A stretch of 64,000 nt of DNA from Nitrospirota bacterium (GTDB taxonomy: Bacteria; Nitrospirota; Thermodesulfovibrionia; Thermodesulfovibrionales; SM23-35), in NCBI GenBank assembly GCA_040753955.1, contig JBFMDQ010000003.1, forward strand, positions 17,312-81,311. Direction: 5' to 3'. Position numbers and translations under genes: made by a program. Under the pieces are notes generated by a model, which did no database searches, had not been told where the DNA came from, and saw only the letters and a program-made list of their open reading frames with translations. Below are positions 31,167 to 47,030 of the stretch, one piece after another; the first letter of the stretch is position 1; every line of letters begins with the position of its first letter.

Positions 31167-31260
31167 TTAAACTATATTATATCTAAATCAAGTGATTTTT
31201 TCGTCTATATCATGGCAAGTCAGTCCGCCTCTGGCGGATGCCGCTACCTGAATTCAAGTC

Positions 31261-31384
31261 AAAATTATCAATGAGTAATTATCAATTAACAATGAGCAAT
31301 TACCAAGTTAAATTTTCAATGATAATTTTGCATTGATAATTGCTAATTTTTATTTGATTATTATTTGGTCATTGGGTATTTTAG
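31261..31384. repeat. Heptamer-periodic AT-rich inverted-repeat element (AATNNNN words)
   Basis: Six in-phase heptads run AATTATC AATGAGT AATTATC AATTAAC AATGAGC AATTACC (31263-31304). They face an inverted arm ending at about 31384. The element shares an identical 17-mer and 20-mer with the hypB-hypF spacer. Confidence 0.7.
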
Positions 31385-38965: not shown

Positions 38966-39190
38966 CTCCAATGATCAATAACCAAATACCAATAACCAAA
39001 TAAATTCCAATAATCAAAAACCAATAACCAAACAACATTAACCCTTAATTAGCAACTGAACCACTTGCACGGATTAACTGTGAAATGAGTTCTCTGTGGT
39101 TCTCTCTTCAAGGTCGAATTTTTGTTTGGTTATTGGAATTTTCTTCATTGGTTATTATTTGGATCTTGGAATTTGGTGTTTGGTTATTAT
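38966..39190. repeat. Long inverted repeat of ~70-nt heptamer-periodic arms (ATAACCA/AATACCA words) filling the hypE-pdxJ spacer
   Basis: The arm at 38966-39036 faces the inverted arm at 39121-39190, with an 84-nt centre. A third copy of the arm lies at 46935-47000. Confidence 0.75.
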
Positions 39191-41279: not shown

Positions 41280-43778
41280 TCATCTTCCTGCCTTTATCCT
41301 TTCCCTGATTATATATGCCTGGCCGAGGGATATCCCGGCATCATTACATGCAACCTTTTCGTTGACATAGACTTCCATTCCTATGGATTTAAGCCTTGCG
41401 ATGGTCCTTTCGAGGAGATAAATGTTCTGAAATACCCCCCCGCTCAGAACAACTTCTTTTATCATATAAAGGGAAGAGAGCTTCTGCGCAATTCTAAAAA
41501 TAGCAGTGGCTACGGTGTTATGGAAAAGAGATGCAATAACACCTTCATCCTCTCCTTTTATTGAATCCTCTATAATCCTCAGAAAAGTCTGGGAGAAATC
41601 AATCTCTATGGCCTCTCTGAATTTTATATCTACAGGATAGTCATCAACTACATCAGGTCTCGTTATGGCTTCAAGTGCAATAGCTGCCTCTCCTTCAAAG
41701 GTATTTTTGTCACATATCCCGAGTATGGCTGAGACCACATCGAAGAGTCTCCCGGCTCCTGATGAAAGGGGCGAAAATTGTTTTTTATCGATAATCCTCG
41801 ATATGTTTTCCGTCGTCTCATGACCATACTTATCAAGAAAGCCTATGGACTCAAGATAATCCATCGCCTTATCTTGAGCCATGTTCCAAATATAGCTCAC
41901 AGCTGTCCTCCACGGTTCCTTAATTGCCACTTCACCCCCTGGAAGGGGAATATATCTGAAATGACCTACCCTTTCGAACCCCTCTATATTGGCAATTAAA
42001 ATTTCTCCACCCCAGAGATTTCCATCAGTGCCATAACCGGTTCCATCAAAGGAGAAACCTATAACCCTCCTCTTTATCCCCTTTTCAGCCATCACAGAAG
42101 CAATATGGGCATAGTGGTGCTGTATACCTATCTTTTCAATATCTTCCTGCCGCAATGCCCATTGTGTTGATAGATACCCGGGATGGAGGTCATAGGCAAG
42201 GGCCACAGGCTCTACCCTGTAAACATCTTTAAGGTTTTCTAAGCTCTCCTCAAAAAACCTCAATGTCTCGTAGTTTTCCATATCACCTATATGCTGACTC
42301 GGTATCGCAAAACCTCCCTTTGTGAGGGTGAAGGTGTTCTTAATATCAGCTCCACATCCGAGAACCTCAGGGCCCTCCTCGTGAAAGGGAATGGGGTCAG
42401 GGACATATCCGCGAGAACGTCTTATAAAAAAAGTCGGGAGTCGGGAGTCGGGAGTCAAGGATCCTAATTTTTGATTTTTAATTTTTAATTCTTGACTGAT
42501 GACTCTTACTACTGAATCATCAACCCGCATAAAAATATCTCTATTATGAATAAGAAAGGCATCAGCAATGTCTGAAAGCGTAGAGAAAGCCTCATTATTG
42601 TCTATGACGATAGGCTCTTCCGAGAGGTTGCCACTCGTCATGATAAGGGCATCGAAGTTAGTCGTTAGTCGATAGTCGATAGTCGATAGTCCTGAAGCTG
42701 TAGCCGCAGGCTTCAGCCTGCGAAATTTTTCATTTAAGGGATAAAAAAATAATAGATAATGCAACGGGGTATACGGAAGCATGAAGCCGAGGCAGGGGTT
42801 ATTCGGTGCAATTGCATCGGGAAGAGAGTTTTGCCTCTTTTTAAGTAGCACAATCGGTCTTTTGTTAGAAATTAAAAGCTCCTCCTCTTCTTTAGATACG
42901 TCGCAGAATTTTTTAATCGTTCCAACATCAGGCGCCATCAGGGCAAAGGGTTTGTTACTCTTTCTCTTCCTTAATCTCAACGTCTTTACTGCCTCATCGT
43001 TAGTTGCATCGCAGCCTAAATGAAACCCTCCAAGCCCCTTAATAGCAACAACTTTTCCTTCTTTCATGAGTTTTATTGTCGCCTCTATAGGATTTCCTTT
43101 TTCATAGACTTTTAGCTCTTCACCTAATAATCCCCTCATTCCCTCTTTATCCCTCTTAGTCCCCCCTTGGTAAGGGGGGAAATAGGGGGGTGAGGGGGGA
43201 TTACTTTCATTCTTTACTATTAATTCAACATGTGGACCGCATGCTGCACATGCATTCGGCTGGGCATGGAACCTCCTGTCTTCTGGATTATGGTATTCTT
43301 CCTCGCATTTAGGGCACATCTGAAAAACAGACATGGTAGTGCTCGGTCTATCATAAGGAACAGATTTTGTTATTGTATATCTTGGACCGCAGTTCGTGCA
43401 GTTTATGAATGGATAGAGGTAACGTCTGTCATTCTTATCCAGCAGCTCCCTCAAGCAGTCTTCGCATAACGAGACATCTGGAGAAATGAGGGTGAAACTC
43501 CCTTCGTCCTTACTCCTGACTATCTGAAAATCCTGATAACCATGATAGGGCATGGGAATTATATCAATTTCCATTATCTGTGAAAGAGGCGGGGCCTCTC
43601 TGGTAAGCCTCTCGATAAAGGTGGAGCTATTGTTACCTTCTATCTCGATAGTAACACCCCTGGATGAGTTCATCACGAGGCCCTTGAGATTCAAAGTTTT
43701 GGCAAGGCTATAAACAAAGGGCCTGAAGCCAACTCCCTGGACAATTCCCCTGACTAATATCTTCACCCTGGGTTTCAT
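41280..43778 (-). CDS. hypF: Carbamoyltransferase HypF carrying three in-frame repeat-derived insertions
   Basis: The 832-aa ORF has an acylphosphatase domain, two CxxC-x18-CxxC zinc fingers, a YrdC-like domain (AIKGLGGFHL) and a Kae1-like domain. Extra segments lie at 43116-43211, 42651-42743 and 42426-42500. Confidence 0.9.
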   Translation of the reverse strand: MKPRVKILVRGIVQGVGFRPFVYSLAKTLNLKGLVMNSSRGVTIEIEGNNSSTFIERLTREAPPLSQIMEIDIIPMPYHGYQDFQIVRSKDEGSFTLISPDVSLCEDCLRELLDKNDRRYLYPFINCTNCGPRYTITKSVPYDRPSTTMSVFQMCPKCEEEYHNPEDRRFHAQPNACAACGPHVELIVKNESNPPSPPYFPPYQGGTKRDKEGMRGLLGEELKVYEKGNPIEATIKLMKEGKVVAIKGLGGFHLGCDATNDEAVKTLRLRKRKSNKPFALMAPDVGTIKKFCDVSKEEEELLISNKRPIVLLKKRQNSLPDAIAPNNPCLGFMLPYTPLHYLLFFYPLNEKFRRLKPAATASGLSTIDYRLTTNFDALIMTSGNLSEEPIVIDNNEAFSTLSDIADAFLIHNRDIFMRVDDSVVRVISQELKIKNQKLGSLTPDSRLPTFFIRRSRGYVPDPIPFHEEGPEVLGCGADIKNTFTLTKGGFAIPSQHIGDMENYETLRFFEESLENLKDVYRVEPVALAYDLHPGYLSTQWALRQEDIEKIGIQHHYAHIASVMAEKGIKRRVIGFSFDGTGYGTDGNLWGGEILIANIEGFERVGHFRYIPLPGGEVAIKEPWRTAVSYIWNMAQDKAMDYLESIGFLDKYGHETTENISRIIDKKQFSPLSSGAGRLFDVVSAILGICDKNTFEGEAAIALEAITRPDVVDDYPVDIKFREAIEIDFSQTFLRIIEDSIKGEDEGVIASLFHNTVATAIFRIAQKLSSLYMIKEVVLSGGVFQNIYLLERTIARLKSIGMEVYVNEKVACNDAGISLGQAYIIRERIKAGR

Positions 43779-43828
43779 TAACCATTAATCAGTTTTGCGA
43801 GATCCCATGCTCAAAGGTTTAATTGCAA

Positions 43829-44045
43829 GTTAAAATTATCAATTAACAATTATTAATTTTACTGTTTTTCACAATACGGTTAAGGTTACGATGCCGGTAT
43901 CGTTATTCGGTTACGTCTTTCGGCCTCGAACTCAATAGTATAGAAAAACGAATGACATTGGCCGTTGGACGGCACGGGCTTCTTAACCTTAAACCTCTTT
44001 ACCCTATAATACGGTTAATTTTACATTGATAATTGCTAATTTTCA
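43829..44045. repeat. AATTATC-type hairpin element interrupted by a 124-bp GC-richer insert flanked by an 11-bp direct repeat
   Basis: The 17-mer AATTATCAATTAACAAT (43834-43850) and 20-mer CATTGATAATTGCTAATTTT (44024-44043) are identical to 31277-31293 and 31331-31350. The direct repeat AATACGGTTAA lies at 43873-43883 and 44008-44018. Confidence 0.7.
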
Positions 44046-44687
44046 CCTTATGAGTGACTGTAACCATTCTGCCCATTCGCCTATACCTTCTCCTGTCTTG
44101 CATGAAACCTCAAATATCTTCAAAGTTGGGTTAAGGGATAACGAATTCTTCCTTATCTTTCCTGTATCTGCATTTGTATAAGGCAGGAGGTCAATCTTAT
44201 TCAAGATCAATGCTGAAGATTCCTGGAACATCAACGGATATTTGAGGGGCTTATCGTCCCCTTCTGTTACACTAAGGACCATAACCTTCATGTCCTCACC
44301 AACCTTGAACTCAGCAGGACAGACGAGATTTCCAACATTCTCTATGATAAGGAGATCAAGGTCTTTAAGGGATAAACCAACAATTGCCTCGTTAATCATA
44401 TTAGCATCGAGGTGGCATGCACCACCTGTATTTATCTGAATGACGGGGATGCCGAGGCCTCCTATCCTTTGTGCATCCTCTGTACCAGCAATATCACCCT
44501 CTATAACGCCTACTCTCAGTTTACCCTGATACTCTTTAATCGTCCTCTCTATTAAGGAGGTCTTGCCTGCTCCGGGGGCGCTCATGAGGTTGATAACATA
44601 AACACCTGCCTCATTAAAAAACTTCTTGTTTTCGGCAGCAATTCTCTCATTCGCCTCCATGATTCGTGTTACAACCTTAATCTTCAT
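44043..44687 (-). CDS. hypB: Hydrogenase nickel-incorporation GTPase HypB
   Basis: The 214-aa ORF has the P-loop SAPGAGKTS, ENVGNLVCPA and NKIDL. Confidence 0.95.
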   Translation of the reverse strand: MKIKVVTRIMEANERIAAENKKFFNEAGVYVINLMSAPGAGKTSLIERTIKEYQGKLRVGVIEGDIAGTEDAQRIGGLGIPVIQINTGGACHLDANMINEAIVGLSLKDLDLLIIENVGNLVCPAEFKVGEDMKVMVLSVTEGDDKPLKYPLMFQESSALILNKIDLLPYTNADTGKIRKNSLSLNPTLKIFEVSCKTGEGIGEWAEWLQSLIR

Positions 44688-45852: not shown

Positions 45853-46944
45853 ATGGGTGACGAACTTTATATAAAGCGTGCCCTTAGGCTTGCAGCAAAG
45901 GCACGCTGTATGACAAGCCCGAACCCCATGGTTGGGGCTATAATTGTCAAGAATGGGAGAACAATTTCTGAGGATTTTCATAGAAGGCCTGGGACTCCCC
46001 ATGCTGAGGCTCTCGCTATAGAAAAGGCCGGAGAAAATGCCAGGGGTTCCACCCTTTATATAAATCTCGAGCCATGCTGCCATACAGAGAAAAGAACCCC
46101 TCCCTGCACAGAGGCTATCATTAGTGCGGGTATAAAAGAAGTGGTTATTGCTATGACAGACCCAAATCCAAAGGTCTCGGGCAGAGGAATCTCAGAGCTT
46201 CAGAAGGCTGGTATAAAAGTCAGATCAGGTATTCTCGAGAACAAAGCAGAGAGACTTAATGAGGCATATATAAAGTACATGACTACAGGAAAACCCTTTG
46301 TGATACTAAAGATTGCCATGACCCTCGATGGGAAGATTGCTACCCCTGAAGGGCAGTCTAAATGGATAACATCCGAAAAGGCAAGAAAGATGGTTCACCG
46401 TCTGAGAGGCAGCGTTGACGCAATCATAACAGCTATAGGAACAGTTAAAGCAGATGACCCTGAGCTTACGGTAAGGATAAAAGATGGTAAGAATCCCCGA
46501 AGGATCGTTATTGACCCTGACCTTGAAATATCTTTGAATGCAAAGGTTCTTAAGGTACCACCCCCGACAATTATAATAGCGAAAAAGTCAGCAGTCGAAG
46601 AAAAGAAAAAAACATTGTTCAATAAGGGTGTTCAAATCATCGAGTATAAGGGAGAAAAACTAAATCTCCACTGGCTCATGAGAAGGCTTGGGGGAAGAGA
46701 AATCACATCGGTTCTGATAGAGGCAGGCTCCTCGATGAATGCCCATGCCCTCGAAGAAGGAATTGTCGACAAGGTGATATTTTTCATTGCACCGAAGATC
46801 ATCGGAGGGAGAGAGTCATTCCCTGCTGTAGGTGGGAAGTCCTTCAGGAGGCTTGAAGAGGCATACCGTTTAAAGGATGTGAAGGTAAGAAGGGTAGGGG
46901 AAGATATCTTGATTGAAGGATATATAGATAAGAATAACCAATAA
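45853..46944 (+). CDS. ribD: Bifunctional riboflavin biosynthesis protein RibD (deaminase/reductase)
   Basis: The 363-aa ORF has the CDA motifs HAE and PCxH..(x)..PC, plus a C-terminal RibD reductase domain. The last codons and the stop lie in repeat DNA. Confidence 0.95.
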   Translation: MGDELYIKRALRLAAKARCMTSPNPMVGAIIVKNGRTISEDFHRRPGTPHAEALAIEKAGENARGSTLYINLEPCCHTEKRTPPCTEAIISAGIKEVVIAMTDPNPKVSGRGISELQKAGIKVRSGILENKAERLNEAYIKYMTTGKPFVILKIAMTLDGKIATPEGQSKWITSEKARKMVHRLRGSVDAIITAIGTVKADDPELTVRIKDGKNPRRIVIDPDLEISLNAKVLKVPPPTIIIAKKSAVEEKKKTLFNKGVQIIEYKGEKLNLHWLMRRLGGREITSVLIEAGSSMNAHALEEGIVDKVIFFIAPKIIGGRESFPAVGGKSFRRLEEAYRLKDVKVRRVGEDILIEGYIDKNNQ

Positions 46945-47030
46945 CCAAGCACCAAATTCCAAATAAATTACAATGACCAAATTCCAATAACCAAACAAAA
47001 AATCTCTGTAGCCGCAGGCTTCAATCTGCG
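46935..47030. repeat. Composite repeat: one ATAACCA-type arm followed by the 24-nt motif TGTAGCCGCAGGCTTCAATCTGCG
   Basis: The arm resembles 38966-39036. The 24-mer at 47007-47030 matches 42699-42722 inside hypF at 22 of 24 positions. Confidence 0.7.

Follow-up and report, generated by a model that had tools for sequence, protein, structure and literature searches.

REP hairpins stabilize upstream mRNA in E. coli operons and are usually lineage-specific, and IS1397 inserts into the loops of palindromic units. The 23S rRNA intervening sequences (IVSs) that carry an ORF of the PF05635 type are described as selfish hairpin elements, sporadic in distribution, excised by RNase III and of unknown origin (PMC4990558). 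The hairpin that we describe here lies in the 264-nt spacer (43779–44042) between hypB and hypF in the window, by which we mean the whole 64-kb stretch of DNA that was analyzed. HypB homologues place the source organism in the Thermodesulfovibrionales (Nitrospirota). Both genes are on the minus strand, with hypB (44043–44687, 214 aa, PF02492, named HypB in the sources) upstream of the spacer and the hypF ORF (41280–43778) downstream of it; the region before the hypF start is conserved with the closest relative (L002, see below) and is untouched by the block. An initial annotation had offered two readings of this block, a very small mobile element caught with an 11-bp target-site duplication or a small structured RNA gene in the middle of the hyp operon. 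The block is in fact one copy of a dispersed family of imperfect-palindrome DNA repeats of ∼85–125 nt. Since it belongs to a dispersed multicopy family, "small mobile element" was right as a general category, while the 11-bp duplication and the RNA gene did not withstand the comparisons given below.

The hairpin block at the hypB–hypF junction

The repeat unit spans 43876–43996, with the 5′ arm ACGGTTAAGGTTACGATGCCGGTATCGT and the 3′ arm ACGGCACGGGCTTCTTAACCTTAAACC, as defined by predicted folds and by the score of a covariance model (R1) that was built from 13 units of the family. R1 scores this unit at 95.7 bits (E = 9e-25) on the plus strand and at 61.5 bits on the minus strand. With filters off it returns 43876–43996 as the sole copy within the 64-kb window, where blastn likewise found no further copies. 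Folding predictions for either strand give a single long, imperfect hairpin (z = −2.5 to −2.8) for the block, whose inverted arms, 31 nt long and 74% complementary, are terminal inverted repeats of the kind that define a MITE. The block hairpin nests inside an AT-rich stem, such that the predicted fold of the whole spacer is a long nested stem-loop. Coding capacity is limited to ORFs of 25–34 aa in the block, and a PF05635-like ORF is absent from the 64-kb window.

Several features reported in the initial annotation are present as described. These include local hairpins, an inverted 9-nt pair, TTAAGGTTA (43880) and TAACCTTAA (43984), and a perfect 11-nt direct repeat, AATACGGTTAA, at 43873–43883 and 44008–44018 on the plus strand, with a period of 135 nt. 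The left copy of the 11-mer extends into the conserved beginning of the 5′ arm; the right copy lies 12 nt past the 3′ arm. Even when one mismatch is permitted, the window contains just these two matches. The spacing of two anchors shared with a second site in the window also agrees, as the 17-mer AATTATCAATTAACAAT (31277 and 43834) and the 20-mer CATTGATAATTGCTAATTTT (31331 and 44024) are separated by 37 nt at the 31.3-kb copy versus 173 nt at hypB–hypF. Other claims held in part. Deleting the block together with one repeat brings this gap to the length found at the 31.3-kb copy (38 versus 37 nt) but leaves a different sequence, and a block described as GC-richer is so relative to its AT-rich flanks (46% versus 20–30% GC) but does not stand out from the window as a whole (42%).

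A weak match to the Rfam family CRISPR-DR11 at 43772–43829, across the hypF start, scores 24 bits where the gathering score is 45 (E = 0.036) and is most likely due to chance. A promoter-like TTAACC-16-TAAAAT on the minus strand (43856–43883) spans the junction between the hairpin end and the AT-rich arm and is directed at hypF. The same promoter-like spacing is seen in two related copies from another genome (16 nt in L010 and 17 nt in L012, introduced below), and such sites are overall not above chance in the region.

Comparison of hypB–hypF spacers among relatives, which had been proposed as a check, revealed an empty site. The nearest relative by HypB is a metagenome-assembled genome (MAG) at 96% identity (GCA_030019415.1, L002), followed by many relatives at 80–87%, and an independent assembly (L003) contains the same allele as L002. 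The L002 locus is collinear with the window and 92–94% identical to it at the nucleotide level in the flanks (blastn). Homology stops at 44016 and restarts at 43859, leaving 156 nt here (43860–44015) without counterpart, versus 12 nt in L002. These bounds replace the 43884–44007 proposed earlier, and they support the block as a discrete lineage-specific addition relative to the 96% relative. Both AT-rich arms are kept in L002 around a short center that resembles the 31.3-kb paralogue, and AATACGGTTAA is absent from the empty site of L002 and L003. The difference between the alleles is therefore a replaced center of an AT-rich element and not an insertion with target duplication. It may represent either a gain here or a loss in L002; the contig of an 87% outgroup (L064) ends inside the AT-rich arm.

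The filled allele was also recovered in an independent assembly (L001, Logan SRR29635779, 900 nt), the one public contig whose HypB is exactly that of the window. This contig stops inside the 3′ arm of the hairpin (L001 841–900, window ∼43984), a position at which an assembly graph would branch if the arm were repeated in the sample. Within hypF, the segment at window 42659–43205 has a lower identity (85%) to L002 5334–5765 and contains small indels, and the ORF is 832 aa long in the window, versus a called length of 786 aa in L002.

In this Thermodesulfovibrionales lineage the hairpin sits centrally in a second, AT-rich palindromic repeat, and the resulting ∼210-bp composite itself repeats. 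The inverted repeats of the outer element consist of a left arm beginning with CAAGTTAAAATTATCAATTAACAATTAT (43826–43859) and a right arm, TAATTTTACATTGATAATTGCTAATTTTCAC (44016–44046), which extends into the hypB stop codon; they are common to L002/L003 and to L010/L012. A short form of the AT-rich repeat without the hairpin module is located in the window at 31255–31356, where it adjoins a tRNA-Ser gene. An exact 25-mer of the block matches three genome contigs, namely L010 and L012 from a Nitrospirota genome (MAG138, GCA_040755805.1) and L011 from an Omnitrophota MAG. The full composite, made up of AT-rich arms, TTTTACTGTTTTT, the hairpin and TAATTTTGCATTGATAATT, is found in both L010 and L012, on separate contigs and in unrelated intergenic contexts. 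L012 aligns with window 43826–44034 at 90.5% identity over 211 columns despite its unrelated gene context. MAG138, which is present in the same sequencing run as the window's organism, has a HypB that is 87% identical, hyp genes that are 81.5% identical at the DNA level, and a hypB–hypF spacer that cannot be aligned with that of the window. From the higher identity of the composite than of the hyp genes we infer that the repeat is younger than the divergence of its hosts.

Elsewhere in the window, arrays of CAATAACCAAA and TTTGGTTATTG motifs at 38976–39190 and 46938–46990 constitute another inverted-repeat element, probably a further small repeat family in the source genome. An "aataaccaaa" string similar to these motifs adjoins the L012 composite.

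A dispersed repeat family and its PF05635-bearing relatives

The search for other copies, which had also been proposed as a check, failed within the 64-kb window and succeeded outside it, where R1 matches dozens of copies in other genomes and metagenome contigs (E = 1e-13 to 1e-27). A metagenome search with a 19-mer of the block matched 33 loci. About 19 of these are hairpins of ∼85–125 nt with a matching 3′ arm, ACGGGCTTCGTTACC, for which the search had not selected; the other 14 were discarded as coding-sequence coincidences in GC-rich DNA. Tandem arrays of two to five units with a period of 120–126 nt are present among the R1 copies and show a high copy number in at least one organism. The arrays at L015 164–697 and 9739–9961, L023 2379–2729, L026 148–734, L038 82–553 and L018 1–284 have units that match at 91–98% and are located on large contigs of two metagenomes, Ga0302250 and Ga0302253. 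Many copies can be counted on single large metagenome contigs, with one in the 64-kb window and two composites in MAG138. All of the copies examined are in short intergenic spacers, 3–90 nt from gene ends, and their orientation relative to the flanking genes is unbiased (∼6:7).

The arms of the family are conserved and asymmetric, with ...GGTTACGATGCCGGTATCG... on one side and ...ACGGGCTTC(G/T)T(T/A)ACC... on the other, and the stem is conserved across the family together with its mismatches. None of 12 stem pairs was compensatory, where the 5′ arm is fixed by the way in which copies were found; copies free of this ascertainment contain noncompensated changes, and the family has no G·U strand bias. 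We considered a REPIN-like arrangement in which the two arms form separate small hairpins, each maintained by compensatory changes, and ACGAT-GCCGGT-ATCGT fits it. This idea was dropped because the small stem of the 3′ arm is not kept in L010, L012, L014, L017, L028 or the window. Plasmid and phage collections gave no match to the block by blastn, and of two exact 19-mer matches in viral contigs neither is a hairpin by R1. We found no enzyme able to move the hairpin element. The family itself appears to be undescribed.

Larger relatives of the hairpin contain a gene. In the Omnitrophota contig L011, 29 nt identical to the window are located directly 3′ of a 139-aa ORF that belongs to PF05635/TIGR02436, a family of four-helix-bundle proteins named after the 23S rRNA intervening sequence (PF05635 E = 1e-20), and is related to PDB 2GSC. 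The ORF sits between fabF and the next gene upstream, and an inverted arm partner is present on its 5′ side. Further IVP loci were sampled only through homologues of the L011 protein, and hence blind to the DNA. In L046, a Nitrospirota contig, the PF05635 ORF lies between GGTTAAGGTTAGGAAGCCTGT and ACTGGTTTCTTAACCATAACC; arms of the form GGTTAAGGTTA.../...TAACC were seen by eye in L046 and L065, those of L065 being of the same hexamer type. In the marine contigs L047–L050, two PF05635 ORFs lie interspersed among the genes of a two-component operon, and one of them is flanked by GGTAACGAAGCCCGTATCG and CGAAACGGGTTTCGTAAC, with R1 matches at E = 2.5e-4 and 9e-3. The corresponding region of L047 (1530–2950; also in L048–L051, TARA) contains histidine kinase, response regulator and HD-domain genes around the two PF05635 genes, each of which is bracketed by inverted arms, and is followed by a GIY-YIG gene. 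In L055, ORF-less R1 hairpins are found on both sides of the PF05635 ORF (R1 match beside the ORF, E ∼ 1e-4), and in L070 an R1 hairpin (52 bits, E = 1e-12) abuts the 3′ end of the ORF and the same 26-nt arm precedes it. Duplex energies of the ORF flanks were significant in three of the five cassettes first tested (L011, L046 and L047b, z = −3.5 to −4.3). The link between the arms and PF05635 draws on six loci (L011, L046, L047, L055, L065 and L070), in part by inspection by eye.

Given that family arms bracket PF05635/TIGR02436 genes in Omnitrophota, in Nitrospirota and on marine contigs, the copy in the window looks like, and is best interpreted as, a miniature form of an IVS-like hairpin cassette that lacks the ORF. 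A fixed "sense" orientation of the window copy relative to the PF05635 ORF was rejected, as L011 and L046 conflict; the near-palindromic nature of the arms accounts for the conflict. In the relatives that bear an ORF, it encodes PF05635 only, and no transposase is linked. PF05635 proteins have no known recombinase activity. No cognate RAYT (Y1 transposase) was found in the loci examined, either. The sole Y1_Tnp gene that we saw (PF01797, L055 245–745), 2 kb upstream of the PF05635 cassette, is flanked by another, unrelated inverted repeat, cagttgccagttatcagtcgtcag / ctggcaactgacgactg, and not by the hairpin motif, and the same route found none in the window; a RAYT link through this gene was accordingly rejected. 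The literature that we searched contains no account of these elements or cassettes, or of ORF-less forms, outside rRNA.

Origin of the block and competing explanations

Our preferred account, which we regard as reasonably probable, is that the block is a copy of this repeat family and an ORF-less miniature linked to PF05635 cassettes, that it forms part of an AT-rich composite, that it came to hypB–hypF through exchange between elements, and that it is selfish or neutral DNA. At this junction the window has the long composite form and the closest relative the short one. The most probable step would be recombination or gene conversion between element copies via their shared ∼30-nt AT-rich arms, as suggested by these arms and by the 12–18 nt that were replaced; exchange through the arms would fit because the center of the element was replaced, although no donor copy from the same genome was among the sequences examined. 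Insertion into the center of an AT-rich element would be the alternative step, and an older nested insertion that duplicated TAATTTTRC may first have made the composite. The element is most likely a selfish palindromic repeat and would persist here as selfish or neutral passenger DNA. When transcribed with the hyp operon, it would fold the spacer into a long nested stem-loop, which, by analogy with the rRNA IVSs, could be a processing site of the RNase III type or could stabilize hypB/hypF mRNA. At this locus the element would be a passenger repeat, which annotators can mask, and neither an RNA gene nor a regulator specific to hyp.

A broader reading, which we offer tentatively and consider to be on the unlikely side, is that the hairpin would be the noncoding form of unrecognized, cross-phylum mobile "IVS-like" cassettes. 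Their larger members would encode only an Avd-like PF05635 protein, the asymmetric arms would be recognized by that protein or by a host enzyme, and operon spacers and rRNA helices would be colonized alike. If true, this reading would explain both the origin of the 23S rRNA IVSs and the orphan four-helix-bundle genes.

Also on the unlikely side is an old nested transposition, in which the module entered the center of the AT-rich repeat once and duplicated TAATTTT(A/G)C (7–9 bp), after which the composite spread; the hypB–hypF copy would then be the composite or its conversion product. A second flanking direct repeat, TAATTTTAC, present on the plus strand at 43854–43862 and 44016–44024, is the candidate for the old target duplication and an alternative to the 11-mer, the end of which its right copy overlaps. 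This pair falls exactly on the breakpoints of homology between the window and L002. TAATTTT(A/G)C flanks the module in L010 and L012 too, while the short forms have a single copy, TAATTTTGC, at the right place, and the insertion of IS1397 into the loops of palindromic units offers a precedent. However, the short forms hold an extra center of ∼18 nt (CAAGTTAAA...TGA) that is absent from the composites, so the event was not a simple insertion. A repeat this short could also arise by chance in an AT-rich setting, and other members of the family have no consistent duplication.

It is improbable, in our view, that the repeat was co-opted as a functional cis-acting RNA hairpin and selected at hypB–hypF to process or stabilize the mRNA and set the HypB:HypF ratio. 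The predicted nested stem-loop of the spacer would suit such a role, and REP hairpins that stabilize upstream mRNA are a model for it. Also in favor of this explanation, different palindromic inserts are found at the same junction in at least five other lineages (L002, L004, L005, L059 and L061), and the stems of rRNA IVSs are RNase III substrates (PMC4990558). The inserts are located at L004 4646–4785, L005 3086–3192, L059 2146–2260 and L061 991–1119, with others in L062–L063. MAG138 and the P0004 group have yet other hairpin inserts at the junction, and among strains that share one HypB sequence (P0012), some have a 3-nt spacer and others unrelated palindromic inserts of 100–135 nt at TTAA. 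R1 gave no match to the inserts of other lineages at this junction. On the other hand, the junction is empty (3-nt spacer) in L006–L008, and in L009 it is the same up to the contig end; given lineages without any spacer, the hairpin is not required at hypB–hypF. The presence of family copies in both orientations and in many unrelated spacers, together with the lack of G·U strand bias, argues further against selection for an RNA, and an insertion-tolerant junction accounts for the pattern equally well. The junction is a hot spot, and the pattern shows that it tolerates such hairpins, or possibly favors them. Six or more distinct palindromic inserts have colonized it across related lineages, a natural experiment whose comparison could reveal whether such hairpins alter expression within an operon.

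Even less credible is the main reading of the initial annotation, a classical MITE whose transposase duplicated the 11-bp target AATACGGTTAA. The direct repeat is perfect and surrounds a block with inverted arms, a close relative lacks the block, and an 11-nt repeat arises in just 66 of 5000 shuffles of the spacer (1.3%). This frequency is only modestly unusual, and the window contains 22 exact direct repeats of at least 11 nt that lie within 200 nt of each other. Against the reading, the 11-mer is missing from the empty site, the homology breakpoints lie 13 nt beyond the left copy and inside the right one instead of at the repeat edges, and the right inverted arm ends 12–15 nt short of the repeat. 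The same pair of 11-mers recurs at the unrelated L012 locus, with one mismatch in the right copy (AATACGATTAA, 10/11), and L010 has no right copy. On the left, the 11-mer overlaps the conserved 5′ arm; ACGGTTAAGGTTACG is common to L010, L011, L012 and L014. On the right, its sequence is most readily taken as the beginning of a truncated second unit, and L022 (9 nt) and L033 (20 nt) are comparable in that a partial next unit trails a single copy there. Among the other 15 single copies examined, most lack a significant flanking repeat, although three short repeats (7–10 nt; L030, L033 and L016) stand out. With both copies of AATACGGTTAA belonging to the repeat itself, the left one opening the 5′ arm and the right one opening a truncated second unit, a transposition that duplicated it is unlikely. 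What remains of the proposed mobile element is its membership in a dispersed multicopy repeat family.

An independent small structured RNA gene or riboswitch in the hyp operon can be largely dismissed: it would account for the stable predicted structure (z about −2.5) and for a promoter-like TTAACC-16-TATAAT on the plus strand (43983–44010), but no Rfam family matches the block at the gathering threshold or at E ≤ 10, none matches in 20 related loci, tRNA and tmRNA searches gave nothing on the block, promoter-like sites are not above expectation (3 found versus 1.5 expected), there is no terminator, and the family, which has no G·U bias, occurs across phyla in either orientation, next to unrelated genes and partly as tandem arrays.

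Significance and comparison with known systems

These results tie a small Nitrospirota hairpin repeat to the arms around "23S rRNA intervening-sequence" genes in Omnitrophota, Nitrospirota and marine bacteria. They touch on two long-standing loose ends, one being the origin and mobility of IVSs and the other the role of PF05635 genes, which are very abundant, outside diversity-generating retroelements. With the arm motif defined and a covariance model in place, whole genomes can be surveyed and binding and cleavage experiments become feasible.

Integron attC sites were considered as a further class and rejected. By inspection, neither repeat copy has the core GTTRRRY/RYYYAAC (GTTAAGG and GTTAATT are found), and the hairpins and PF05635 genes are located between housekeeping genes and not in cassette arrays. 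The resemblance to IS1397-type insertion is that one repeat occupies the center of another palindromic repeat; the inner element here, however, is a noncoding hairpin and not an IS. Like MITEs of the Correia, RUP and ERIC type, the hairpin is small, noncoding and dispersed, has inverted ends, is polymorphic between close relatives and is tolerated in operons. Unlike them, its family has no consistent target-site duplication and no parent IS with a transposase, the larger relatives encoding a four-helix-bundle protein only. The hairpins resemble REP, BIME and REPIN sequences, as these too are short imperfect palindromes that are intergenic, often within operons, in either orientation, single or clustered, and conserved in their stem mismatches. 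The arms of the window hairpin are nevertheless built of GGTTAN hexamers and not of GC-rich REP cores, and the family spans phyla, in contrast to the usual lineage specificity of REPs.

The comparison with 23S rRNA IVSs of the Coxiella and Leptospira type has two sides. The window element lies in the spacer of a protein operon and not in a 23S rRNA helix, no rRNA match is present in the window or in 20 related loci, and its relatives form tandem arrays; the window copy is ∼120 nt long and has no ORF. In IVSs, as in this family, complementary ends form a stem around a loop, which may hold a PF05635 (S23p) gene. IVSs, too, are sporadic in distribution and are regarded as selfish (PMC4990558). 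In the relatives' loci, arms homologous to the window hairpin lie on both sides of an ORF of this same type.
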